This document shows positions 18,584 through 60,619 of a DNA stretch of 64,000 nucleotides, piece after piece. The notes below the pieces were generated by a model, which saw nothing but the letters and a program-made list of their open reading frames with translations, searched no databases and was not told where the DNA came from. Origin of the DNA: Bacillota bacterium. Its GTDB lineage: Bacteria; Bacillota; Limnochordia; Darwinibacteriales; DTU012. The stretch spans positions 3,082 through 67,081 of the forward strand of contig JAAYMV010000014.1 in the NCBI GenBank assembly GCA_012521185.1, given 5' to 3'. Within the stretch, counting starts at the first letter, position 1, and the number at the start of each line of letters is the position of its first letter. Both the position numbers and the translations under genes were made by a program.

Positions 18584-21268
18584 ATGAGTAGTAACCACAA
18601 AGTGTTAATACTTTTGTTGGCAGCGGTAGTTCTCTTGCTATTTGATGGAGTGGCAGTTGGGGTAAGTACTGATCAAGCTGAATTAGAGCAGTTAATTGAA
18701 GATTTAATAAGTAGTAATTTTCGAATCTCTACTTTAGCTAGCAATGCCTTAGTCGAATTAGGAGAAGAAGTCATTCCAGCAGTGGGAAAAGTAGTGCTGG
18801 AGAATTCTGCTTGGGATAATCGTTATAAGGCGATTACAGTTTTACGCCGAATCGGATCAGCCGAAGGAATTCCAATTTTATTGAATGCTTTAACTGATTC
18901 AGAGGATCGGGTACGTTCCCACGCTCGCACGTCGCTAGAGGAGATTGTGGCTCAAAGCGATCAAGTTAAGGTTATCGAATTAGTTGAACCTTATTTGGTA
19001 GCCAACAATTTAAACCTGCGAATAATAGCAGCAGACTTGCTGAGTGCTGCAGGATGGGAAAGTGAGGATTTTGCTAATGTTTTTATCAAATCCTTGTCAG
19101 CTAGTGATCCAATAATAAGGGCAATTGCTCTTGAACGCCTTGGGGAAATAGCTCATCAAGAAGCCGCGTATTTTGCTGAAGTTAGTCCCTTGGTATATGA
19201 TTCTCACATTGCAGTTCAAAAGGAAGCGGTTAGGACGCTGGTAAAACTTGGTTTTACTAGTGAGCAAATTGTGGAACTGGTTTTTGCTGGATTCATGAGT
19301 GGACAATTAGATAAAAATGTTGTGCCAGAGCTATTAGGTCAAATGGTTTTAGGCGAACTGAAAAATGCTAAGGCGTTAATTGATGTAATTACTAATACTC
19401 AGAACAGTAAAGAATGGCGTCAATTAGCCTTTGCAGCCTTAGATCTAGTGGTACCCGAAATGGAATATCATTTAGAACGAGGTTTAGTAGCCATTAAAGC
19501 AGCTGAAGGTGTCTATTTAAGCTGGCGATTGTTGGGTACAGAGCCTTATGATTTAGCTTTTAATGTTTATCGTGATGGACAAAAAATAAATGATCAGCCA
19601 ATAACCAGTAGTACTAATTATCAAGATCCACTTGGTACTTTAAATTCGAAGTATCAAGTTAAAGCAGTAATTGCTGACCAAGAAGTTTCTAGTTCTAAAG
19701 AAGTTACTGTTTGGGAAAAAGATTATCTGGCTATTCCTTTACAGAAACCTGAAGGTGGAATAACGCCAGATGGGGTTGCTTATAATTATCGGGCAAATGA
19801 TGCTAGTGCTGCTGATTTAGATGGTGATGGAGAATACGAGATCATTTTAAAATGGGATCCGTCAAATTCTAAAGATAACTCGCAAAGTGGATATACAGGT
19901 AATGTATATATCGACGCCTATAAATTAGATGGTACCTTTATGTGGCGCATAGATCTAGGGCGTAATATTCGAGCTGGTGCCCATTATACTCAATTTATGG
20001 TTTATGATTTAGATGGTGATGGGCGAGCTGAGCTTGTAATGAAAACAGCAGATGGAACCGTCGATGGGTTAGGTAATGTAATCGGTGATCCTAGTGCAGA
20101 TCACAGGAATAGCAGCGGCTATATTTTATCTGGACCAGAATATTTAACTGTTTTTGATGGTTTAACTGGAGCAGCCCTAGCTACAATTGACTATGAACCG
20201 CCAAGAGGTAATGTTTCTGCTTGGGGCGATAATTATGGTAATCGTGTTGATCGTTTCTTAGCGGGAATAGCTTATTTAGATGGTGTTAGACCAAGTGTGA
20301 TTATGGCTCGTGGTTATTATACTAGAACAGTAATAGTCGCCTACAATTGGCGTGATGGTAAATTAGAACATTTATGGACCTTTGATAGTGCTCATCCAGG
20401 ATATCAAGCATATGCTGGTCAAGGCAATCACCAATTATCAATTGCTGATGTAAATAATGATGGACGGGATGAAATAATCTATGGTGCGATGACTATAAAC
20501 CACGATGGAACTCCTTTATATAACACTGGTTTGGGTCATGGCGATGCTTTGCATGTGGGTGATTTCGATCCTGAGCGACCTGGTTTAGAGGTTTTTGGTG
20601 TGCATGAGAATTATCCGAACCCAGCAGGTGTTAACTTACGTGATGCTAGAACTGGCGAGGTAATTTGGGGAATTGCCACCGATTATGATGTGGGTCGGGG
20701 TTTGTCTGCTAATGTTGATCCAAACCATCCTGGAAATGAAGTTTGGGCTTCCCGGACACCGTTGTTTAACGCCAAAGGCGAGGTCATTAGTAATACAGCT
20801 CCTTCATCAATTAATCATGCTATTTGGTGGACAGGAGATTTATTGAGAGAATTGCTTGATCATGATCGTAGTCGTGGGAATGTAGGTAAAATTGACAAAT
20901 GGGACTGGGAAAACCAACGAACGGTTAATATTGCTACTTTCGAGGGAACTTCATCAAATAATGATACGAAAGGTAATCCATGCTTACAGGCGGATTTATT
21001 TGGTGATTGGCGTGAAGAAGTAGTTTTTAGAGCTGTTGACAGCAGTGAATTAAGAATATATTCAACAACTTATCCGACTGAACATAGGCTATATACCTTA
21101 ATGCACGACCGAATGTATCGAGTTGCTATTGCTTGGCAAAACGTAGCTTATAACCAGCCGCCACATCCAAGTTTCTATATTGGACCTGATATGGAGCGGC
21201 AAGAATTTAACATTGGTAATGCTTACACAGTGTTAGAGCAATATGGTGATGAATTAAGTAAGTGGTAG
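18584..21268 (+). CDS. Secreted rhamnogalacturonan lyase (PL11) with N-terminal HEAT-like module, paralogue 3
   Basis: Same architecture, 894 aa with a slightly shorter N-terminal module. RBS AAGGGAG. Confidence 0.8.
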   Translation: MSSNHKVLILLLAAVVLLLFDGVAVGVSTDQAELEQLIEDLISSNFRISTLASNALVELGEEVIPAVGKVVLENSAWDNRYKAITVLRRIGSAEGIPILLNALTDSEDRVRSHARTSLEEIVAQSDQVKVIELVEPYLVANNLNLRIIAADLLSAAGWESEDFANVFIKSLSASDPIIRAIALERLGEIAHQEAAYFAEVSPLVYDSHIAVQKEAVRTLVKLGFTSEQIVELVFAGFMSGQLDKNVVPELLGQMVLGELKNAKALIDVITNTQNSKEWRQLAFAALDLVVPEMEYHLERGLVAIKAAEGVYLSWRLLGTEPYDLAFNVYRDGQKINDQPITSSTNYQDPLGTLNSKYQVKAVIADQEVSSSKEVTVWEKDYLAIPLQKPEGGITPDGVAYNYRANDASAADLDGDGEYEIILKWDPSNSKDNSQSGYTGNVYIDAYKLDGTFMWRIDLGRNIRAGAHYTQFMVYDLDGDGRAELVMKTADGTVDGLGNVIGDPSADHRNSSGYILSGPEYLTVFDGLTGAALATIDYEPPRGNVSAWGDNYGNRVDRFLAGIAYLDGVRPSVIMARGYYTRTVIVAYNWRDGKLEHLWTFDSAHPGYQAYAGQGNHQLSIADVNNDGRDEIIYGAMTINHDGTPLYNTGLGHGDALHVGDFDPERPGLEVFGVHENYPNPAGVNLRDARTGEVIWGIATDYDVGRGLSANVDPNHPGNEVWASRTPLFNAKGEVISNTAPSSINHAIWWTGDLLRELLDHDRSRGNVGKIDKWDWENQRTVNIATFEGTSSNNDTKGNPCLQADLFGDWREEVVFRAVDSSELRIYSTTYPTEHRLYTLMHDRMYRVAIAWQNVAYNQPPHPSFYIGPDMERQEFNIGNAYTVLEQYGDELSKW

Positions 21269-31872: not shown

Positions 31873-32017
31873 CTCAATAGATATTCCTTTTATCTTAATT
31901 CAGCGTATTAACTGAAATTTCCTTTTTATGTTATAATAATACAAGGGAAATATTTACGAAACTAGAAATTAACATAAAACTCTAGTGCATTTGTCAGTAG
32001 TAATGGAGGTTAGTTTG

Positions 32018-35000
32018 ATGGCTCGACTAGTTCATATTGGCATTGATGTAGGTTCAACAACTGTAAAAATTGTTGTTATAGATCAAGACTTCCAGTTGTT
32101 GTACAGTAAGTATCAGCGACACTACTCGGAAATTCGAGAAGCAGTAGCTGATTTATTACAAGAAGCCTATCAAGAATTTTCGGACACTAAGATTACTGTG
32201 ATGGTTACTGGTTCCGGCGGTATTGCTATTGCTGAGCACCTTGGTGTGGAATTTATTCAGGAAGTAATTGCAGGCGCAAAAGCGATTGAAACCTTTCATC
32301 CTGAAACAGATGTGGCTATTGAGTTAGGTGGCGAAGATGCGAAAATCATCTATTTTAGAGGTGGAATTGATCAGCGAATGAACGGGATTTGTGCTGGCGG
32401 AACAGGGTCATTTATTGACCAGATGGCGACCTTGTTAAAAACAGATGCCGCTGGCTTAAATGAGCTAGCCAAAAATTATAAAACAATTTATCCGATTGCA
32501 GCCCGCTGTGGAGTTTTTGCCAAAACAGATTTACAGCCATTGATTAATGAAGGTGTTGCTAAAGAAGATTTGGCAGCCTCAGTTTTTCAAGCAGTAGTTA
32601 TTCAAACTATTAGTGGATTAGCTTGTGGTCGGCCAATTAGAGGTAATGTGGCTTTCCTCGGTGGCCCCTTATCATTTTTACCTGAACTAAGACAGCGATT
32701 TGTTGAGACTTTAAACCTAACCGATGAGCAGGTTATAGTTCCTGAACATCCACAGTTATACATTGCTTTGGGTGCAGCAATTGCTTCTAAAAATACTCAA
32801 CCACTTGCTTTTTCTGATCTAGCGAGTGCTATAACTACATTAAGAAATAGTACTATTCAAGAAACAGATAGATTAGCACCGTTATTTAAAAATGAACAAG
32901 AGTTAGCTGAGTTTAGACAGCGCCATGGCCGTTATGCAGTAGAAAGAGGCAATCTTGCTGATTTAGAGGGTAATTGTTTTGTTGGCATTGATGCTGGTTC
33001 TACAACAACGAAAGTAGCGGTAATCGATGAGGATGGAAAATTGCTGTACACTTATTACAGTAGTAATCAGGGCAGCCCGCTCCAAACAACGATTAATGCC
33101 TTAAAGGAATTCTATTACTTAATGCCAAAAACTGGTCGTATAGCAAATTCGGTAGTGACTGGTTATGGTGAAGGCTTATTAAAAGCGGGATTAAAAGTTG
33201 ATATTGGTGAAATTGAAACAATTGCCCACTATAAAGCTGCTGAATTTTTCTGCCCAGGAGTAGATTTTGTTCTAGATATTGGCGGTCAAGATATGAAAAG
33301 TTTGCGGATTCGTGATGGTGTGATTGAAAGTATTTCATTAAATGAGGCTTGTTCTTCTGGTTGCGGTTCATTTTTAGAGACCTTTGCTCATTCCTTAGGT
33401 CTCGATATTAAAGAGTTTGCTGCAGAGGCTTTATTGGCAGAAAAGCCTGTAGATCTTGGGTCGCGCTGTACAGTGTTTATGAACTCTCGCGTAAAACAAT
33501 CTCAAAAAGAAGGAGCAACTGTTGGTGATATTTCTGCTGGATTATCCTACTCGGTTATAAAAAATGCTTTGTTTAAGGTTATTAAATTGCGTGATAATAG
33601 TGAGCTTGGTGGGAAAATTGTTGTTCAAGGCGGTACTTTTCATAATGATGCCGTATTAAGAAGCTTTGAACTCTTAGCGGAACGGGAAGTTATTCGTCCC
33701 GATATTTCTGGCATTATGGGAGCGTTTGGTGCAGCCTTAATCGCAAGGGAGCGCTACCAAGAAGGATATCAATCTACTTTATTGAGTGCTAAAGAAATAG
33801 ATAACTTGCAAGTTAAAACCAGAATTACTCGCTGTCGTCTTTGTTCTAACAATTGTATGTTAACTATTAACCAGTTTGGTTCAGGCAATCGTTATATTTC
33901 AGGTAATCGCTGCAGTAAGGGAGCAGGGGAAGAAGACCGCAGTGAAAAATTACCTAATCTTTATCAGTATAAGTATGAACGGCTTTTTCAATATCAGCCC
34001 TTGCCAGAGAAATTAGCTCCTCGCGGTAGGATAGGTCTTCCACGTGTCTTAAACATGTATGAAAATTATCCTTTCTGGTTTACTTTCTTTACCGAGCTTG
34101 GTTTTTCTGTAGTACTATCAGAGAGGTCTTCGAAAGCTGTTTATGAAAAGGGGATTGAGACAATTCCTTCTGAGTCTGTTTGTTATCCGGCAAAAATGGT
34201 TCATGGCCATATTGTAGACTTAATTGATAAAGGCGTTGATGTAATCTTTTATCCATGCTTGACTCATGAACGACAGGAGCAAAAATCAGCTGAAAACCAC
34301 TTTAACTGTCCGATAGTTACTTCTTATCCGGAAGTAATTAAGAATAATGTTGAGATACTGAGAGAGAAGAATATTAAATTCCTTTATCCCTTCTTGCCCT
34401 ACGATCATAAAGGGCGGTTAATTAAGCGGCTTCACGAAGAATTAGGTGAGTTGTTGGGTTTATCAAAGAGTGAAATTCGGCAGGCGATAAACAGGGCTTG
34501 GCAAGAACAAGATGAGTTTAGAGCAGATATTAAAGAACAAGGGGAAATTACGCTACAGTTAATTAAAGAAAAGGGATTAACTGGTATTGTTTTAGCTGGC
34601 CGTCCTTATCATATAGACCCAGCTATTAACCATGGTATTCCTGAATTAATCAACAGTCTAGGTATGGCTGTATTAACCGAAGATTCAATTTCCCATTTAG
34701 ATTCTGCAGAAAGACCATTGCGGGTAGTAGATCAATGGGCTTATCATTCACGGTTATATGATGCAGCCACTTATGTTTCTAAATCTGACAATTTAGAGTT
34801 AGTACAATTAAACTCCTTCGGTTGTGGATTAGATGCCATTACCACTGATCAAGTGGAGGAACTTTTAGCTGCAAAAGGTAAAATCTATACTTGTTTAAAA
34901 ATTGACGAAGGTGATAATCTAGGTGCTGCTCGTATTCGTTTGCGCTCTCTAAAGGCTGCAATCATTGAAAGAAGAGAAAAAGGCTATCAACCAGTGCTTG

Positions 35001-36262
35001 AAAATAACATAGTGAAACGTAAGCTGTTCACCAAAGAAATGCGTCGACAGCATACTATTTTAGCGCCACAAATGTCTCCAATACATTTTGACTTGTTAGA
35101 AAAAGCTTTTAGGCTCTCTGGCTATAACATAGTAGTATGTCCTTCAACAGATCGGGAAGCTATCGATATTGGATTAAAATATGTTAATAATGATGCTTGC
35201 TATCCGGCAATTATTGTCATGGGGCAGTTAATTGAGGCCTTACAATCAAATAAATATGATCCAGATAATACGTCTGTATTGGTTACCCAGACTGGGGGAG
35301 GATGTCGAGCTACAAACTACATTGGATTTTTGAAAAAAGCACTAGTGGATGCTGGTTTTCCCCAAGTCCCTGTCTTATCCCTAAATCCTAAGGGGATGGA
35401 TGATAACCCAGGCTTTAAAATTACTCTTCCACTGCTCCATCGAGCTTTAATGGCAGTTATTTATGGGGATTTGCTAATGCGCCTGTTGTACCGTGTCAGA
35501 CCATACGAAAAAATTAAAGGCTCAGCTAATATACTTTATGAAAAATGGTCGGAAATTTGTAAGAGGACATTAGAAAAACCAGGAATCATAACTTTTAAAA
35601 ATACCATTAAACAAATTGTCAACGAGTTCGATAATTTCGAGATTATAAAAAAAACCAAGCCCAGAGTGGGATTGGTAGGCGAGATTTTAGTGAAATACCA
35701 TCCGACTGCCAACAATAATGTTGTTGAGATCGTAGAATCTGAGGGAGCTGAAGCAGTGGTACCGGATATGACGGATTTCTTCTTATACTCTGCTTTAGGG
35801 CTTGATTTTAGATACCGTTATTTATCTGGTACGAAGATTGAACAAATTCTATCGCGCACTGCGGTTCAAATCATTGAATTGTATCGTAAAACACTGCGTC
35901 AAGCATTAGAGACTAGTAAACGCTTTTCACCGCCAAAATCTATCTATGAAATCGCAGAAAATGCATCAAGGATCATTTCTTTGGGTCATCAAACTGGCGA
36001 AGGTTGGTATTTGACAGGTGAGATGGTAGAGTTAATTGAAAATGGCGTGGAGAATATTGTGTGTATGCAGCCCTTTGCTTGTTTGCCGAATCATGTAACT
36101 GGCAAAGGGATGCTGCGAGAATTAAAGCGAGTTTATCCGAATAGTAATGTAGTAGCAATTGACTATGATCCTGGTGCCAGTGAAATTAACCAGTTAAACC
36201 GGATTAAATTGATGTTAGCAGCGGCTTTCAATAATTGTGAACTACAAGCACAAGCTCAATAG
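32018..36262 (+). CDS. Giant fusion protein: two BadF/BadG/BcrA/BcrD (HgdC-type) activase ATPase domains plus 2-hydroxyacyl-CoA-dehydratase-like domains
   Basis: Two copies of the actin-fold ATPase start motif ([15 protein letters not shown] and [15 protein letters not shown]). Cys-rich linker (CRLCSNNC…C). Long C-terminal region resembling HgdB/BcrB-like dehydratase subunits. Likely start at 32018 (GGAGG + 8 nt). Confidence 0.7.
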
Positions 36263-36292: not shown

Positions 36293-37669
36293 TTAATCTA
36301 TTAGTTGATCGGCTAGCCAGTTAATATATTCTTCGATGGCTGTGTAACCGCTAGGCATGATTTGATTGTGATTACCATTTTTAACTCCTTTTTCTTCTTC
36401 CCACCAATCAGGGATACCATTACGATTTTTGTCTGTGCGGTCGATATCGATTGTTTTAGTTGTAATATCTTGAACTTTTGGCCAAGCGCTAACTACTTCA
36501 CTTTGTGAATCAATGATTTTACCAGTTCTGTTTCGCACATCATTGACTACACGAGCATCGATGGCATCTCGGGGAAAGGCGCCAGCTTTGGCTAAAACTT
36601 CGTCAAAAGCCATCTCAGCAGAACTAGTAGTTACATAAGCAACTGGAAACGGTTCGGTTGCTTTTAGATAAGTAGACTTGCTAGGACCACTACCAGAGAC
36701 TAAAGACCATTGATCACTAGGCAAATTACCATTCATCATATTGCCTAAAAAATATCCCTGAGCGTAGGGGGCATTATCCCTAAAAGCATAGGTATTAGAG
36801 GATGAATTCGGTCCTGGTTTGTAATAGTTGTTGATAAAGTTGTATTGAGTAATGGTATCAGTATCTTCATTGTTGCCGGCATAGGTACCGCCCCAGTTAT
36901 ACATTACATTATTGCGAATGTCAACTAAAAATCCGATTGGATCATCTTTATAAGAAGTATAGTTTCCTGGACGTGGATTACGCCCGCGATTATGCGCCCA
37001 TAGATTGTGATGGAAGCTAACTCTTTGCCCATTGCTACCCCTTATTAAGGAACCATAGCCATGAGGTCGTTTCTCATGATGTGATTCATTTAATGCTTCA
37101 CTAATGATACTCCATTGGATAGTAACTAGATCGCTATCTGATACAGAAAGAGTTTCATCAATACCCCAACTTGAAGTGACATGATCAAGGATTACATTGT
37201 TAGCTCGCAATATTTCGATACTGTCTTTTTCTTGTTTGATAAGATCCCCTAAGCGAACGCGCAGATGACGGACAACTACATGATCAGTTTGAATGGCAAA
37301 ACGCTTATTGGTTAAGGTTATGCCTTTTGGTGAAGTTTGTCCAGCAATAGTAATATAAGGGTTTCTAATTATCAATTCTTCTTTTAATTCAATAATCCCA
37401 GACACTTCAAAAACCACAATTCTTGGTCCACTAGCTTCTACAGCCTCCCGTAGACTGCCCGAACCACTATCATTTAGGTTAGTAACAATATAAACCTTTC
37501 CGCCCCGGCCGCCTCGTGCATCGGCTCCAAAGCCTTCTGCGCCAGGAAAGGCTAAAACTTTACCTGCAACAGGTTCTTTCATTTTAATAAATATATAATC
37601 ACAACCAGTCAATAAACAAAGAGCGACAATTAAAGTGATTAGTACGTAGAATTTTTGTATCTTCTTCAT
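36293..37669 (-). CDS. Pectate lyase, PL1-like β-helix, predicted lipoprotein
   Basis: Lipobox LLTGC. GGRGG…VTNLNDSG…GSLREA…PRIVVFEVSG N-terminal pattern. ILDHV…WGIDE (vWiDH-like) and RNPRPG (RxPxxR-like) motifs. C-terminal NRNGIPDWWEEE motif. Confidence 0.6.
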   Translation of the reverse strand: MKKIQKFYVLITLIVALCLLTGCDYIFIKMKEPVAGKVLAFPGAEGFGADARGGRGGKVYIVTNLNDSGSGSLREAVEASGPRIVVFEVSGIIELKEELIIRNPYITIAGQTSPKGITLTNKRFAIQTDHVVVRHLRVRLGDLIKQEKDSIEILRANNVILDHVTSSWGIDETLSVSDSDLVTIQWSIISEALNESHHEKRPHGYGSLIRGSNGQRVSFHHNLWAHNRGRNPRPGNYTSYKDDPIGFLVDIRNNVMYNWGGTYAGNNEDTDTITQYNFINNYYKPGPNSSSNTYAFRDNAPYAQGYFLGNMMNGNLPSDQWSLVSGSGPSKSTYLKATEPFPVAYVTTSSAEMAFDEVLAKAGAFPRDAIDARVVNDVRNRTGKIIDSQSEVVSAWPKVQDITTKTIDIDRTDKNRNGIPDWWEEEKGVKNGNHNQIMPSGYTAIEEYINWLADQLID

Positions 37670-37680
37670 AACAATCTCCT

Positions 37681-39024
37681 TTACAAGTTATTTATCAGAG
37701 AACTAGCCTTCCAATTTAAATATTCTTCGATGACAGTGTAGCCACTATCGGTGATTCGTTTAGGTAGCTCTGGATCATTAGCATCTAGACCATGCTTAAT
37801 TTCCCACCAATCTGGGATTCCGTTTCGATTAGTGTCTACTTCTGGCTCTCCAGTAAGGATTGGCCAGCCGCCAACTTCATCTTGGGAATTTATAATCTTA
37901 CCAGTCCCATTGATTACATCAGTAATAATTCGCTGATCCACTGGATCGCGGGGTAAAGCACCCACATGGTTTAACACTTTTTGAAAGGCTATTTCGGCAT
38001 GGTCAGTATTGATTGGATAGGTAGGAAAGGGCTCGGTCTTTTTATAATCATCTCGGTTTGTAGCATAGCCTGTAACAATGCTCCAAGGGTCAGCTGGTAA
38101 TTGCCTATTCATATAGTTGCCTGCAAAATAGGCAGCTGATTGAGAACAGCGATCATCAAAGGCAACATTATGATTAGCTCTAGTACTGGGACCAGCTAGA
38201 TAATAATTATTTATAAAGTTGTATTTTGTGATTGAGTCTGAGTCATGGTTGTTTCCACAATAATCACGCCAGTTATAAAAGACATTATTGCGGAAATCTA
38301 CTAGTAAACCTTGGGGATCAAGATCATAACTGTTATAATTTCCTGGCCGAGGCATCCGCCCACGATGATGAGCCCATAGATTATGATGGAAGCTAACTCG
38401 TTCACCATAGCCGCCGCGCAGTAAAGAGCCATACCCATGTTCACCTTTGGCATGTACTGATTGATTTAGACTTTCGGCAATCATGCAATATTGGACAGTT
38501 ACTAAGTCGCTGCTAACTACAGATAGTGTTTCATCGGTTCCCCAACTAGTAGAAACATGATCTAGAATTACATTATTAGCGCTCCTAATTTCTAATGTAT
38601 CTAATTCTCTACCAGAAACATCGCCGGGACGCACCCGCAGATGACGAATAATAGTTTGAGCAGCCCGTACTCCTAACTCATAATTAGCAAGAGTGATACC
38701 GCCTGGTGAAGTTTGACCTGCTATAGTTATGTAGGGATTTCTAATAATTAGTGGAGACTCTAGCTGAATAATACCAGATACTTCAAAAACTACGATTCTT
38801 GGCCCGCTAGCTTCGACTGCTTCCCGTAGGCTGCCAGGTCCGCTGTCATTGAGATTAGTGACGATGTAAACATCACCACCACGACCACCAATTGTATAAG
38901 CACCGAATCCTTCGGCTTCCGGAAAGGCTAACAGTTGATCAGTTGAGGCCATTCCCATGGAACATAAGCTAAATAGCAAAACTGTCAGAGTGAGTAGTGC
39001 AGCTATCGGATTAATTCTACTCAT
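37681..39024 (-). CDS. Pectate lyase, PL1-like β-helix, secreted
   Basis: Signal peptide. Same motif set as the neighbouring gene (ILDHVSTSWGTDE, HRGRMPRPG, NRNGIPDWWE). The two genes are diverged paralogues. Confidence 0.6.
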   Translation of the reverse strand: MSRINPIAALLTLTVLLFSLCSMGMASTDQLLAFPEAEGFGAYTIGGRGGDVYIVTNLNDSGPGSLREAVEASGPRIVVFEVSGIIQLESPLIIRNPYITIAGQTSPGGITLANYELGVRAAQTIIRHLRVRPGDVSGRELDTLEIRSANNVILDHVSTSWGTDETLSVVSSDLVTVQYCMIAESLNQSVHAKGEHGYGSLLRGGYGERVSFHHNLWAHHRGRMPRPGNYNSYDLDPQGLLVDFRNNVFYNWRDYCGNNHDSDSITKYNFINNYYLAGPSTRANHNVAFDDRCSQSAAYFAGNYMNRQLPADPWSIVTGYATNRDDYKKTEPFPTYPINTDHAEIAFQKVLNHVGALPRDPVDQRIITDVINGTGKIINSQDEVGGWPILTGEPEVDTNRNGIPDWWEIKHGLDANDPELPKRITDSGYTVIEEYLNWKASSLINNL

Positions 39025-45542: not shown

Positions 45543-47483
45543 GTGATTACAGTTTTTGAAAATGATTATGCTGAACTGGATGTTGGAGTTTTTCCCCATG
45601 ATTATTCTGCGTTAGGAGAGTACCATTTGGCTTTTCCACCTGGCAGAACAGGACCTTGGATTGCTTCCACTGTTCACCATTCCTGGCGTGGAAATCCTTC
45701 ATGGATTATTACTACAGAAAATGGAAAAAAGGTCTTAGAACAGGCTTGTATTCGCCAAAAGTTTTTGCCAATGCTGGTTACTGGTGATTTTAAGTGGCAG
45801 GATTATCAAATTGACACAGTTTTTAGACCTTTGTCCTTAAATGGTGCATTTGGGATAGTATTCCGTTACCAAACTAGTCGTCATTGGTATGCACTTTGGT
45901 ATGATCATGAAAAATTGCAAATTGTAGTGAAAGAGGATGACTTGTTTCAAGTCTTATCAGAAACAGCTTGGACACCAAGTTGTGATCTGTATTATCCTGT
46001 GACAATCAAAGTAGATGGAAACCAGTTTTCGGCCATAGTTGATGGTATAGAATTATCTGCTGCGGATGAACGTTACACCACCGGAAAGGTAGGTTTTGCT
46101 GGTACCCATCCAGTACGGTTTGGCAAGATCTCAGTTCAAATGGAATCTGCTAAATATGAAGCCTATTTACAAGAGCAAGAAGAAGAAGAACAATTAATCC
46201 GAAAAAAACGGGCATCCTTACCCCAGCCAAAGCTATGGAAAAAGATTCCGACCCCTGGATTTGGTGCTGGTAAGAGTATTCGTTTTGGCGATCTAGATAA
46301 TGATGGGCGACAAGAGATCTTATTAGCGCAAAATATTCGTCGGATGCGCGGTGACAATTTTAGTGAGATTAGTTGTCTAACAGCTATTGACTTAGACGGT
46401 AACGTGTTATGGCAAATTGGTGAACCTAATCCAGCGAACGCCTTGGTTTCTAATGATTTACCGATGCAAATTCATGATATTGATGGAGATGGAGAGCAGG
46501 AAGTTATCTTCTGTAAAGACTTTAAAATCAAAGTTGTGAATGGAAAAACAGGTGAGTTAAAATATGAAGCACCTACTCCAGTTGCACCGCCTCATAAAGG
46601 CGATAAAATGCCAGAAACTCAGTATCATAGAATTACAGGAGATTCCATTTACTTTTGTGACCTGACTGCTCAAGGTGAGCCGCGCGATATGATTATTAAA
46701 GATCGTTATAATAATATTTGGGCTTATACTTGGGATTTAAAGCAGTTGTGGCATTATCAGGGTAACTCTGGTCATTTCCCAATGGCTTGTGATATTGATG
46801 GAGATGGTAAAGATGAGATCCTGATTGGTTACACATTATTAGACCATGATGGTACAGTAATGTGGTCATTGGATATTGGTGATCATGCTGATGGTGTAGC
46901 AATTGGTAAATTTGCTGGTGATGACGAATGGCAGTTTATTATTGCAGCTAGTGATGAAGGTATGTACTGGGTAGATTACCATGGAAATATAGTTAAACAT
47001 CATCGGATTGGTCATGCACAAACTGCAACTATCGCACCTTTTTATCAAGGGTCAAACGAGTTGCAAGTTGTTACAGTAACTTTCTGGGGCAATCCTGGAA
47101 TTATTATTTACTTTGATGCTAAAGGTAACATTCTCAAACGTATGGAGCTAATAGCCCCCTTTGGTACTCCATTATCTCCAGTGAATTGGGATGGGTCTGG
47201 TAGAGAATTGATTTTATTATCCGGTCACCCAACTTTTGGCGGTTTAATTGATGAGGATGGGCATCGAGTAGTAATGTTCCCAGATGATGGACATCCTTAT
47301 CTCTGTTGTGAACCAATGGATTTAACCGGTGATGGCCTGGATGAAATCCTATTATGGGATGAAAACGAAATCTGGATTTACACGCAGGACCAACCAAGTA
47401 AGAATACTGGTTATCAGCCAGTACGTCAACCATCTTATAACATGTCCAACTATCGGGCTCAATTATCCTTACCGAAGAAGTAG
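45543..47483 (+). CDS. Cytoplasmic two-domain protein: N-terminal lectin/LamG-like (DUF1080-like) jelly-roll plus FG-GAP/VCBS-type β-propeller with DxDGDG calcium-binding repeats
   Basis: DxDGDG repeats: FGDLDNDGRQEI, HDIDGDGEQEV, CDIDGDGKDEI, MDLTGDGLDEI. No signal peptide. GTG start after GGAAGGAG. Function unassigned, possibly a PL11-like or other carbohydrate-active propeller. Confidence 0.45.
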   Translation: MITVFENDYAELDVGVFPHDYSALGEYHLAFPPGRTGPWIASTVHHSWRGNPSWIITTENGKKVLEQACIRQKFLPMLVTGDFKWQDYQIDTVFRPLSLNGAFGIVFRYQTSRHWYALWYDHEKLQIVVKEDDLFQVLSETAWTPSCDLYYPVTIKVDGNQFSAIVDGIELSAADERYTTGKVGFAGTHPVRFGKISVQMESAKYEAYLQEQEEEEQLIRKKRASLPQPKLWKKIPTPGFGAGKSIRFGDLDNDGRQEILLAQNIRRMRGDNFSEISCLTAIDLDGNVLWQIGEPNPANALVSNDLPMQIHDIDGDGEQEVIFCKDFKIKVVNGKTGELKYEAPTPVAPPHKGDKMPETQYHRITGDSIYFCDLTAQGEPRDMIIKDRYNNIWAYTWDLKQLWHYQGNSGHFPMACDIDGDGKDEILIGYTLLDHDGTVMWSLDIGDHADGVAIGKFAGDDEWQFIIAASDEGMYWVDYHGNIVKHHRIGHAQTATIAPFYQGSNELQVVTVTFWGNPGIIIYFDAKGNILKRMELIAPFGTPLSPVNWDGSGRELILLSGHPTFGGLIDEDGHRVVMFPDDGHPYLCCEPMDLTGDGLDEILLWDENEIWIYTQDQPSKNTGYQPVRQPSYNMSNYRAQLSLPKK

Positions 47484-56889: not shown

Positions 56890-58593
56890 TTAGGCAATTA
56901 GTAGTTTTTCAAATTCTTTTGTTTTTAGTGGCGGGCTAAAGTAATACCCTTGTGCCTCCTTTAGATTGTGAGCTTGTAACAATAGTAATTGGTCAAGGTT
57001 TTCTACGCCTTCAACAATGATATTTAAATTCATCATTCGCGCCATCTTAACGATGGACTGAACAATTACTTGATCTTTATAATTCTGACAAATATTACGA
57101 ATAAAACCGCGATCAATCTTTAAAGTATCGATGGAAATCTGCTGTAAATGACTTAATGGTGAGTATCCTGTACCAAAATCATCGATGGCAATTCGGACGC
57201 CTTTTTCTCTTAAGGAACTAATTTTGTACTTAACAGAATCGTAATTAAGTGTTTTACTTTCGGTTATCTCTAACTCCAAATAGCTAGGATCTAGTCCAGT
57301 TTTTTCTAGAATGGAAATGATGTTCTGATAAAAATCATCCTGGTAAAGTTGAACGACGGAGATGTTTACTGATAATCTTGTTAGCTGATGGCCTTGCTCT
57401 AACCATTGGCGAAATTGAGTGCAGGCATTCTCTAAAATCCAGTTTCCTAAAGGAACAATAAAATTGCTTTCTTCCGCCAGTGGAATAAATTCTAGTGGGG
57501 AAATTAAACCTAGATGGGGATGATTCCATCTTACTAAAGCTTCAGCCCCTATTATTTGATTGGTTTCAATGTCGTATTGTGGTTGGTAATAAATTGCAAA
57601 TTCGGAACCGGCTAATGCTCTTGTAAAAGTTCTTTCCATTAATAATTTACGCATGGCAACTTTTCCCATAGTTTTGGAATACAATTTATAACAATTTCCA
57701 TCACTTCTTTTGGCATAACTCATAGCAATATTAGCAAAGCGAATTAATGAGAACTCATCCATTATATTTCCTTGGTTTGCTAAACAAATGCCAATACTAG
57801 CGGTTATGATCAAATCATGTCCACTAAAAAATATCGGCTCAGAAATATTTTGTAGAATAGCATTAGCAACTGCTTCTATCTCTGAACTAGTTTTCCGTGT
57901 TAAAGTGATCAAAAACTCGTCGCCTCCCAAACGGGAAACAAAATCAGAAGCAGTAATGCTATTACGGAGCCGATAAGCAATTAATTTTAAAATTTGATCG
58001 CCAGTACCGTGGCCTAAAGTATCGTTTACTAGTTTGAAACGATCGAGATTAAGATAAAGAACAGCTATATTTAGTTCTTCACTCTCTAATCGAGCTAAAT
58101 TTTGCTTAAGATGTATGGATAATTGGTTACGATTAGGTAATCGAGTAAGTTGATCGCAGGAAGACATTTCTTGAAGTGATTCATGGACAGATATTTTTTC
58201 GGTAATATCAGTGACCAAACCATGAATTCCCAATAATTTCCCTTGGAAGATAGTTGGAATAGCAGTAACATTGGTATGAATTCGTCTACCGTTTTTGTGA
58301 AGTAAGCAAACTTCAAAGGTTTCGGTATATCCTTGTTTAACTTTTTCGAAGAGCGTGATAGTTTCTCCTAGATCTTCAGGTAAAACCAAGTCTAGAAACA
58401 AAGTATTAATAAGTTCTTCTTCAGAATAGCCGCATAGATTGATCAAGGCTGGATTTACTTCAGTGAAGAAACCGTCTTGATTAATACAAAACATTCCTTC
58501 TGAGCAATGATTAAAGAAGGATATATAAGTATTCATTCTAAATTGGTTTACAGAATTACAAGCTTGGTTTGCTGAATGATCGAATGTGGTCAC
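56890..58593 (-). CDS. PAS-GGDEF-EAL signalling protein (intact GGDEF and EAL motifs)
   Basis: PAS (S-box) segment, RLGGDEFLI, EALVRW and DDFGTGYS. GTG start after GAAGGAG. Confidence 0.85.
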   Translation of the reverse strand: MTTFDHSANQACNSVNQFRMNTYISFFNHCSEGMFCINQDGFFTEVNPALINLCGYSEEELINTLFLDLVLPEDLGETITLFEKVKQGYTETFEVCLLHKNGRRIHTNVTAIPTIFQGKLLGIHGLVTDITEKISVHESLQEMSSCDQLTRLPNRNQLSIHLKQNLARLESEELNIAVLYLNLDRFKLVNDTLGHGTGDQILKLIAYRLRNSITASDFVSRLGGDEFLITLTRKTSSEIEAVANAILQNISEPIFFSGHDLIITASIGICLANQGNIMDEFSLIRFANIAMSYAKRSDGNCYKLYSKTMGKVAMRKLLMERTFTRALAGSEFAIYYQPQYDIETNQIIGAEALVRWNHPHLGLISPLEFIPLAEESNFIVPLGNWILENACTQFRQWLEQGHQLTRLSVNISVVQLYQDDFYQNIISILEKTGLDPSYLELEITESKTLNYDSVKYKISSLREKGVRIAIDDFGTGYSPLSHLQQISIDTLKIDRGFIRNICQNYKDQVIVQSIVKMARMMNLNIIVEGVENLDQLLLLQAHNLKEAQGYYFSPPLKTKEFEKLLIA

Positions 58594-58798
58594 TGAAAGA
58601 TACTCCTTCTATGTTAGGATGACTAATCAAGTTAGAAAACAATCTTTTAATGTATAAATTCCATATTCATAACATAAGTCCTTCCAGAATTCTATCTTTT
58701 TTCTTGAAAATGTGGAGCTAGGAAGGTTAATGAAAAAGTTTGTATAATAAAATTATTAAAGTAAAATTATAACATTGTTGTAAAGGAGGAAAAGGTTG

Positions 58799-60619
58799 AT
58801 GCAATCTAAGCTAGGAGTTGTTTCAATTATATTTTTGCTGTTATGTTCAGGCATTGTTAGTGCGCAGATTTCCGAGCAGCAGTTGGTGGATTTACTGATT
58901 ACTTTAGGTGATTCAAATCCAATGGTAGCCTGGGAAGCTCATCGTAACTTACAGAAACTTGCTCCGGAGTATCTTACCTTAAATGAAGTTGCGTTAGAAA
59001 AGGTATTGCCTAAGTTGGCAGATCCAACTGTCAGAGATAATGTGATCAATTTGTTTCTTCGTGCACCTGAGAGTGGTGTTAGCTTATTGATAAACACGAT
59101 CAAAGATTCGGAGACTTCCATATTACTTAAAGATCAAGCTATTCAGTTACTAGGTAAAATGACTGGAGAAACACAGCAGATAGTTGCTGTTTTAGTTGAA
59201 TTGTTAGAAAATGAGCAAACGCCATACTTAATAAGAGTTTCTGCTAGCGATATGTTAGCTAATTTGGAAGTAGCTGATCAATCTGAATTGGTAACCAGAG
59301 CTTTAGAGGAGGCAAAGTATCTTAACCAATACATATATAATGAGCAAATTGTTTTTCGGATTGATAATAATTTAGCAGAACCACTTGATAATCATCTAGT
59401 TGTTGGGGTATTAGCAATCCCTGAATTAGATATTAAATTAGAAGATTTAGCGGTAGTAGATGATCAAGGAAATCGGATTCAAGCTAGAATTAGAGAGCTA
59501 GCTAGTTGGTCAAGTGGCAGTCCACGGGTGGTGGAGATTTCTTTAGCAGTTAGTTTAGATGCTCATGGCGTAGCTACCTATTATTTGCAGTTGAGTGGTA
59601 CTACTGGATTTGCATCAAATATTAACAATAATGCAGTTAGTTTTAGTTTCTTTGGCGAAGGTATTTCAGGGTTTACAGATTTAGATCTACCATATCAGGA
59701 AGGGTGGAGTAATTTGATGATTGTAGCTAAAGATGGAAGTGGCCAGTTTGATAGTGTGCAAGCCGCTATCGACGCAGTTCCTGAAAACAACAAAGAGCGA
59801 GTTTATATTTATATTAAAAATGGTGTTTATAAAGAAAAGATTACTGTACCAGAAAATAAACCGTTCATTAGTCTAATTGGAGAAAGTAGTGAAGGTACCA
59901 TTTTAACCTATGATGATAGTGCTCGGACCATAGGCCCAGATGGCAAAGAATTAGGAACTACAGGAAGTTCTAGTTTTTTTGCTAAAGCAGATGATTTTAC
60001 GGCTGAAAATATTACCTTCCAGAATACCGCTGGCATGTATGCAGGGCAAGCAGTAGCAATTAGAACCTACGGTGATCGATGTATATTTAACAATTGTCGT
60101 TTCCTTGGTTATCAAGATACTTTGTATGTTACAGGTGGGCGACAATATTTTGTTAACTGCTATATTAAAGGTGATGTGGATTTTATTTTTGGCGATGCAA
60201 CTGCGGTTTTTGAAAACTGCGATATTGTGGCAACTAACAGACGAGAAGGTGGATATATCACAGCTGCATCTACCCCTGAAACATCAGAGTTTGGTTATTT
60301 AATAATCAATAGCCGTTTAATTGGGGAAGGTGAAGCCAATAAATTCTATTTAGGTCGTCCTTGGCGTCCTTATGGTGCAGTAGCAATTATTAATTCTTGG
60401 ATTGGAGATCATATTCGCCCAGAAGGGTGGCATAATTGGAGTAATCCAGCTAATGAGCAAACAGCTCGCTATGTTGAATATAATAATTCCGGTCCTGGAG
60501 CTGCTACTGAGCGAAGAGTTCCTTGGTCTACAGTATTAACAGCTGAAGAGGCAGCGAGATATACTGTGGAAAATGTTTTAAGAGGTAATGATGGGTGGAA
60601 TCCTAAATTGCGTGATTAG
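58799..60619 (+). CDS. Secreted pectinesterase (CE8) with N-terminal HEAT-like α-helical module related to that of the PL11 paralogues
   Basis: Signal peptide, ~160-aa helical module and a middle β-rich segment. CE8 motifs: GSGQFDSVQAAIDAVP, QAVAIR, GYQDTLY, DFIFG, LGRPW. Confidence 0.85.
   Translation: MQSKLGVVSIIFLLLCSGIVSAQISEQQLVDLLITLGDSNPMVAWEAHRNLQKLAPEYLTLNEVALEKVLPKLADPTVRDNVINLFLRAPESGVSLLINTIKDSETSILLKDQAIQLLGKMTGETQQIVAVLVELLENEQTPYLIRVSASDMLANLEVADQSELVTRALEEAKYLNQYIYNEQIVFRIDNNLAEPLDNHLVVGVLAIPELDIKLEDLAVVDDQGNRIQARIRELASWSSGSPRVVEISLAVSLDAHGVATYYLQLSGTTGFASNINNNAVSFSFFGEGISGFTDLDLPYQEGWSNLMIVAKDGSGQFDSVQAAIDAVPENNKERVYIYIKNGVYKEKITVPENKPFISLIGESSEGTILTYDDSARTIGPDGKELGTTGSSSFFAKADDFTAENITFQNTAGMYAGQAVAIRTYGDRCIFNNCRFLGYQDTLYVTGGRQYFVNCYIKGDVDFIFGDATAVFENCDIVATNRREGGYITAASTPETSEFGYLIINSRLIGEGEANKFYLGRPWRPYGAVAIINSWIGDHIRPEGWHNWSNPANEQTARYVEYNNSGPGAATERRVPWSTVLTAEEAARYTVENVLRGNDGWNPKLRD

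Follow-up and report, generated by a model that had tools for sequence, protein, structure and literature searches.

What is a helical, non-catalytic module doing directly behind the signal peptides of different enzymes that attack the same polymer? The question is posed by a stretch of 64,000 nucleotides of Bacillota DNA (contig JAAYMV010000014.1; hereafter the window), in which the gene of a CE8 pectinesterase (58799-60619, + strand) follows a tandem cluster of three PL11 rhamnogalacturonan lyases, A, B and C (13015-15780, 15792-18557 and 18584-21268), the last of which ends 37.5 kb upstream of it. An initial annotation of this DNA, correct in its coordinates and in the separation of about 37 kb, had proposed that pectinesterase and lyases share one N-terminal helical module. 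We conclude that residues 23-178 of the pectinesterase very probably form a divergent HEAT-repeat solenoid, HEAT being the class of repeat that also precedes the PL11 bodies of the lyases. The statement as a whole, in which such an array is also an arm that binds proteins or retains the enzyme, is one that we put forward tentatively.

Is the resemblance between the two kinds of enzyme real, or does it reflect composition only? In BLASTP comparisons the N-terminus of the pectinesterase matched lyase C, colinearly from the N-terminus (E 3e-4, 26% identity), and lyase A, as a local match (E 1e-3); against lyase B there was nothing significant. When a hidden Markov model (HMM) of the three window lyase modules was compared with the 148 open reading frames (ORFs) of at least 60 residues in the window, the pectinesterase was the sole additional match (E 7e-5; next ORF E 1.3). 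A deep lyase profile, made from 26 HEAT-PL11 modules of other organisms with the window modules excluded, gave 31.5 bits against the whole pectinesterase ORF (E 8.6e-10 for the 148 window ORFs); on the N-terminal fragment alone the score was 35 bits. The four window ORFs that match this profile are all exported pectinolytic enzymes; the module recurs across several pectinolytic families and is absent from the other window ORFs. Among 5,000 shuffles that preserved the composition of the fragment none exceeded 11.2 bits, and its reversal gave 1.6 bits; because the profile scores lie so far above these values the similarity is not merely compositional. In this alignment HMM positions 3-135 fall on pectinesterase residues 23-161, first repeat on first repeat, which is the register of the spacing pattern that the initial annotation had read by comparing the pectinesterase with three lyase peptides, correctly quoted and corresponding to the first repeats of A, B and C.

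An independent view comes from phmmer, run exhaustively over 1.84 billion representative proteins with pectinesterase residues 24-306 as the query. The search returned 37 matches: P0007, the syntenic ortholog of the pectinesterase (E 4e-47); P0010, matched in one stretch spanning the helical part and the next domain (E 1.8e-8); and 35 others. HEAT_2 was present in 34 of the 36 matches that were scanned against Pfam.

The pectinesterase ORF specifies a product of 606 residues, with the following features.

58783..58790, + strand: Shine-Dalgarno sequence AAAGGAGG, 8 nt before the ATG at 58799, read from the sequence
58799..58864, + strand: predicted Sec signal peptide, residues 1-22, MQSKLGVVSIIFLLLCSGIVSA, cleavage after VSA, from sequence features
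58865..59332, + strand: very probable divergent HEAT-repeat array, residues 23-178, nine helices, about 4.5 hairpins
59345..59596, + strand: beta-sandwich domain, residues 183-266
59597..59716, + strand: S/N/G-rich, low-confidence linker, residues 267-306 (model residues 245-284, predicted local distance difference test score, pLDDT, below 50)
59717..60619, + strand: CE8 catalytic domain and stop codon (Pfam Pectinesterase, E 1.2e-83; NCBIfam PemA, E 1.9e-51)

We took the ATG at 58799 as the start, and not the TTG at 58796, because of the placement of the Shine-Dalgarno sequence; on 18 public contigs a gene with this start and an identical 606-residue product has been called. Residues 1-22, which have a basic n-region, a hydrophobic core and the VSA motif, are predicted to be a Sec signal peptide, and in reading them we saw no lipobox, the residue at -1 to the cysteine being leucine. 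The mature protein would begin QISEQQLVDLLITLGDSNPMVAWEAHRNLQKLAPEYL (QISEQQLVDLL...). Pfam recognises the CE8 domain alone, in the C-terminal half, and its catalytic motifs are complete (QAVA417, QDT439, DFIFG461 and GRPW519). An AlphaFold2 model of the N-terminal region, built from a three-sequence alignment (mean pLDDT 74), has nine helices (pLDDT 80-94) stacked as a solenoid, then the beta-sandwich (pLDDT 70-84), then a disordered stretch of about 40 residues ahead of the catalytic domain. The tandem helix-turn-helix hairpins stacked as a solenoid that define a HEAT array are thus present in the model. No Pfam HEAT family matched this N-terminus even at E<1, and a PDB sequence search with a CE8-type profile found nothing at E<=1; the assignment to HEAT is made by custom profiles and fold, and the array is beyond the reach of any Pfam HEAT model. 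Together these data show that the pectinesterase is a Sec-exported enzyme of four parts, in which a short, highly divergent HEAT solenoid of about 156 residues and a beta-sandwich are joined through a flexible linker to a CE8 domain that is intact.

The beta-sandwich (59345-59596, + strand) belongs to no Pfam family, and among the 1.84 billion representatives P0007 and P0010 alone contain homologs of it. In fold it comes closest to the sandwich domains of GH38 mannosidases, from which it differs in having neither sequence similarity to the GH38 alpha-mannosidase beta-sandwich nor an accompanying GH38 catalytic domain. That it might be the N-terminal beta-sheet domain of PL11 enzymes, transferred from a lyase, was considered and rejected on the absence of an RGI_lyase match and on the GH38-like fold.

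How do the lyases compare? They and the two pectate lyases of the window are laid out as follows.

13090..14007, + strand: HEAT array of lyase A, residues 26-331, about 10 repeats of 31 residues (Pfam HEAT_2, E 4.8e-19)
14008..15780, + strand: PL11 body of lyase A, RGI_lyase beta-sheet domain (E 4.1e-31) and RGL11_C propeller (E 1.1e-249)
15870..16781, + strand: HEAT array of lyase B, residues 27-330 (Pfam HEAT_2, E 8.1e-13)
16782..18557, + strand: PL11 body of lyase B (Pfam RGL11_C, E 6.7e-259)
18659..19468, + strand: HEAT array of lyase C, residues 26-295 (Pfam HEAT_2, E 7.5e-17)
19469..21268, + strand: PL11 body of lyase C (Pfam RGL11_C, E 3.5e-260)
36293..39024, - strand: two PelZ-like PL1 pectate lyases with no HEAT array (NCBIfam PelZ, E 7.6e-51 and 6.3e-48)

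All three lyases are PL11 enzymes, with an RGI_lyase domain and RGL11_C over the full profile length, and lyase C is identical over the whole protein to NLM24749.1, from a metagenome-assembled genome (MAG) labelled 'Firmicutes bacterium'. Their HEAT_2 scores of 48.9-68.9 bits lie above the Pfam gathering cut-off of 27.7. The arrays, of about 270-305 residues, are near the PBS-lyase/alphaRep HEAT consensus, and a six-module lyase profile that includes the array of lyase A matches alphaRep designs and other HEAT/ARM structures in the PDB at E values down to 3.6e-42. Since Pfam already assigns HEAT_2 to it, the helical module of the lyases belongs to a known family and is not of a new type. The PBS-lyase HEAT-like repeats (HEAT_2, PF13646; HEAT_PBS, PF03130) are the natural basis of alphaRep and occur in CpcE/F, NblB and E. 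coli YibA; the arrays described here differ from these in being exported and fused to carbohydrate-active enzymes, with no bilin-lyase context. The fusion to PL11 is made without a linker, the last HEAT helix passing directly into LEYHLxRG, the conserved sequence with which the PL11 body opens, and because of this the lyase array is probably rigid on its enzyme, unlike dockerin and carbohydrate-binding modules (CBMs).

The two PL1 lyases of the window, by contrast, showed no HEAT array by Pfam or by the module profiles, in agreement with the initial annotation. NCBIfam PelZ matches both, whereas Pfam Pectate_lyase_4 matches one only, below threshold. The first of the pair (36293-37669 and 37681-39024, - strand) has the lipobox LLTGC and is probably a lipoprotein, and both end in a TSP3-like DxNxNGIPDWWE motif.

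How far does the arrangement extend beyond the window? The match P0010, a bifunctional enzyme of 1,596 residues (L006 3790-8580; also L007, L008 and L092 1965-6755), has a HEAT array behind its signal peptide and then a PelZ-like PL1 domain; after a TSP3 repeat come another HEAT array, a beta-sandwich and, last, a CE8 domain. It is present on 17 contigs from several samples and a JGI metagenome. Both of its arrays align to the lyase profile starting at their N-terminal ends. P0010 and the window enzymes together place the HEAT class in front of three pectin-acting CAZy families, PL11, CE8 and PL1. The combination of HEAT_2 with RGL11 forms about 40 clusters at 90% identity, of 880-960 residues save for a few outliers. 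Their source is in every case a metagenome or a MAG that bears the label Firmicutes or Bacillota, and one cluster belongs to Candidatus Wallacebacter cryptica. Ca. Wallacebacter belongs to the Darwinibacteriales/MBA03 order of anaerobic digesters, and the Wallacebacteriaceae are described as pectinolytic (PMC12663870). Our survey shows that the HEAT-pectinase arrangement characterises a small group of Bacillota, uncultured and living in anaerobic digesters, to which Ca. Wallacebacter belongs.

Outside this group the arrangement is scarce. GTDB species genomes contain at least 580 PL11 loci; in the best 80 of these the HEAT part was matched once (L011), and the module profile had no match in the approximately 3,100 ORFs of the other 79 loci; no further HEAT carriers were found in L093 and L094. 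Other PL11 enzymes of the same protein-database search carry accessory modules in place of HEAT, with Pfam accessions that we take to be those of dockerin, SLH, cohesin, CBM6, Big_2 and fn3. With catalytic bodies 55-65% identical to PL11 enzymes of Paenibacillus and Bacillus, the window lyases resemble modular PL11 enzymes of the YesW/YesX type, but where those have CBM, Big_2, fn3 or dockerin appendages they have an N-terminal HEAT array. We found no literature linking HEAT repeats with PL11 or rhamnogalacturonan lyases, and to our knowledge HEAT arrays are rare on secreted carbohydrate enzymes.

Of the PL11 proteins from that database search, P0083-P0085 come closest to lyase A in their catalytic domains (63-68% identity); they measure 562-637 residues and are without HEAT_2. 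The array may have been gained or lost recently, unless short contigs have left these proteins as fragments. In the relatives L005 and L011 the three-lyase locus is kept in synteny, the upstream GGDEF-EAL gene included. In L005 the first HEAT-PL11 gene (10001-12855) is split by a frameshift into two overlapping ORFs, through an assembly error or as a pseudogene, and its N-terminal piece, which on its own looks like a stand-alone HEAT protein of 321 residues, was the one close relative returned by a word-indexed protein search with the three lyase modules. In the window a GGDEF-EAL gene (11637-12980, + strand) lies directly upstream of the lyase cluster, and a PAS-GGDEF-EAL gene (56890-58593, - strand) adjoins the pectinesterase gene divergently. 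That such adjacencies are kept in relatives (L005 8637-9911, L011 6-1310 and L009 1542-3215) hints at control of the pectin enzymes linked to cyclic di-GMP.

A major question arising from these observations is what the arrays do. They are diverging rapidly: identity among the PL11 paralogs of the window is 28-32% in the arrays compared with 71-73% in the catalytic parts, among PL11 orthologs 36-46% compared with 71-75%, and between the pectinesterase and P0007 35% in the array, 43% in the beta-sandwich and 72% in the catalytic domain. Arrays are nevertheless retained in every paralog and ortholog while evolving about twice as fast as the catalytic bodies, a pattern which suggests that they are kept under selection despite their fast evolution and which we count toward a functional role. 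With a pI of 4.4-4.8 they are also acidic, and aromatic residues are scarce in them (4-7% versus 11-12% in the catalytic domains), a composition which disfavours direct binding of polyanionic pectin or neutral sugars and suits a protein-binding solenoid. HEAT and alphaRep solenoids bind other proteins via their concave face, and because of this the arrays are most likely extracytoplasmic protein-binding arms. Such arms would hold the enzymes that act on the pectin backbone at the cell envelope or beside one another, and de-esterification and backbone cleavage would thereby be kept close to the cell. A docking or assembly role is plausible; a protein-binding or retention role is the explanation that we favour, with a confidence that stops short of even. 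Since the paralog arrays differ so strongly, the partners may be specific to each enzyme and need not be one common receptor.

The logic would be like that of dockerin-cohesin and SLH systems, in which one non-catalytic module recurs on different enzymes attacking the same polymer. No Dockerin_1, SLH or type IX secretion system C-terminal domain was matched by Pfam in the four proteins at E<1, and HEAT arrays differ from dockerin and SLH modules in fold, in size (160-300 residues versus about 70, or about 55 x 3), in their N-terminal position, in the missing linker of the lyases and in their strong divergence between carriers. Extending the analogy, the arrays could be the enzyme half of an undescribed 'pectinosome' in Darwinibacteriales-related digester Bacillota, a system to assemble pectin-degrading enzymes or retain them at the cell surface, in which alpha-solenoid contacts would replace those of cohesin and dockerin; this we regard as speculative and unlikely.

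Several observations weigh against protein-binding arms. An identity of 28-32% among paralog arrays disfavours one common receptor, and the linkerless junction with PL11 suggests a rigid extension over a tethered docking tag. Neither the window nor the fetched loci yielded a partner, receptor or scaffold, or anything resembling a cohesin. P0010 carries a possible lipobox, LSAC, so its anchoring may not need the arrays. The GTDB class of the group, Limnochordia, is discussed among the diderm Firmicutes, and since the envelope may have one membrane or two the compartment that the arrays reach is uncertain. On the lyase profile, moreover, unrelated HEAT proteins score 40-100 bits per domain, compared with 31 for the pectinesterase and 40 for P0010, and these sequence comparisons do not establish that the CE8 and PL11 arrays descend from one specific module.

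The last point bears on how much of the initial annotation stands. Its one shared module holds insofar as the same class of helical repeat lies directly after the signal peptide in both kinds of enzyme, but it is a repeat class only. Generic HEAT proteins, NACHT-HEAT and further large repeat proteins being frequent among them, reach higher scores, CE8 and PL11 arrays being no closer to each other than to unrelated HEAT arrays, and the sequences therefore show neither a pectinase-specific subfamily nor a mobile tag. The targeting or docking system that the initial annotation read from the module stays a hypothesis. Likewise, the association with pectinolytic enzymes was borne out beyond the window by P0010 and the HEAT-PL11 clusters, though not as a subfamily peculiar to pectinases. 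The pectinesterase array is about half as long as those of the lyases (about five repeats versus about ten) and is followed by a beta-sandwich that they lack. In a profile-profile comparison (hhalign) the family of the pectinesterase, P0007 and P0010 aligned to the last three repeats of the deep lyase profile (probability 84%, E 8e-6), and the part of P0010 that is homologous to the window pectinesterase array makes up the C-terminal half of an array of full length; the repeat register between pectinesterase and lyases is ambiguous, as is usual for repeats. A specially conserved 'head', formed by the first 135 residues and common to the carriers, was also considered and rejected, column information and pairwise identity being even along the array (0.33 versus 0.33).

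Could the arrays then be no more than rigid structural extensions, which stabilise the enzymes, self-associate or lengthen the surface that approaches the substrate, which have no shared partner and which were perhaps acquired or remodelled independently on CE8 and PL11? The absence of a linker before the PL11 body, the strong divergence of the paralogs, the half-length pectinesterase array with its own beta-sandwich, the resemblance of that array to those of the lyases, which is no closer than to HEAT proteins in general, and the two alignment registers, both significant as generic repeats would give, are all consistent with such extensions. Yet a fusion found in one of the best 80 GTDB PL11 loci is very rare, most PL11 and CE8 enzymes function without any such addition, and recurrence on three families of enzymes acting on one polymer in one lineage suggests a common logic; we consider structural extension, the main rival explanation, possible but somewhat improbable.

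A role in binding polymers, whether pectin, its neutral side chains or a polymer of the bacterial or plant wall, would make the solenoid an unconventional CBM. The arrays do sit where CBMs sit in other PL11 enzymes, and every known carrier acts on pectin. Against this, arrays as acidic as these would meet a polyanionic backbone in homogalacturonan or rhamnogalacturonan I, aromatic residues are few, no CBM family is matched in Pfam, and HEAT and alphaRep folds are protein binders, so that polymer binding seems to us distinctly unlikely. Less likely still is a pro-domain or autoinhibitor. Plant group-2 pectin methylesterases have a PMEI-like PRO region, and by analogy the N-terminal helices would hold the enzyme inactive, or assist its folding, up to the point of export. 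The PRO region is likewise helical, non-catalytic and N-terminal to CE8, and the disordered linker before the catalytic domain of the pectinesterase might be cleavable. The two differ, however, in that there is no sequence match (PMEI, PF04043, was not matched at E<1), the modelled fold is a solenoid and not a four-helix bundle, the arrays also occur on lyases that have neither a linker nor an obvious processing site or motif, and bacteria own no pectin in need of protection. Chance or compositional resemblance, for which the silence of the Pfam HEAT families on the pectinesterase and the non-significant comparison with lyase B might be cited, is ruled out by an exhaustive search that yields nearly only HEAT proteins, by the deep-profile score set against shuffled and reversed sequences and by the modelled helical solenoid, and we give it next to no weight.

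Two other genes of the window deserve mention. At 45543-47483 (+ strand) a protein of 646 residues is encoded beside GH43 and L-arabinose isomerase genes. It has FG-GAP repeats, matches RGL11_C in part (E 1e-12) and has no signal peptide, and it may be a cytoplasmic relative of the PL11 propeller. At 31985-36262 (+ strand), between the gene of a PAS protein and the PL1 lyases, lies an ORF of 1,425 residues that to the eye resembles a fusion of BcrAD/BadFG-type ATPase domains with a part like 2-hydroxyacyl-CoA dehydratase.

We have described a known domain in a new context, limited to a little-studied lineage, and it is the architecture that is unusual. Should the arrays be merely structural extensions, the value of the finding would be the smaller one of a corrected annotation, namely a HEAT array on a CE8 enzyme that Pfam misses, and of an architecture that marks a clade. 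If, on the other hand, protein-binding arms that retain or assemble the enzymes are the correct explanation, they would represent a new way of organising enzymes on plant cell-wall substrates, in a lineage that is abundant in biogas reactors and still uncultured, and the natural repeat family behind the alphaRep binders would be shown to work outside the cell.

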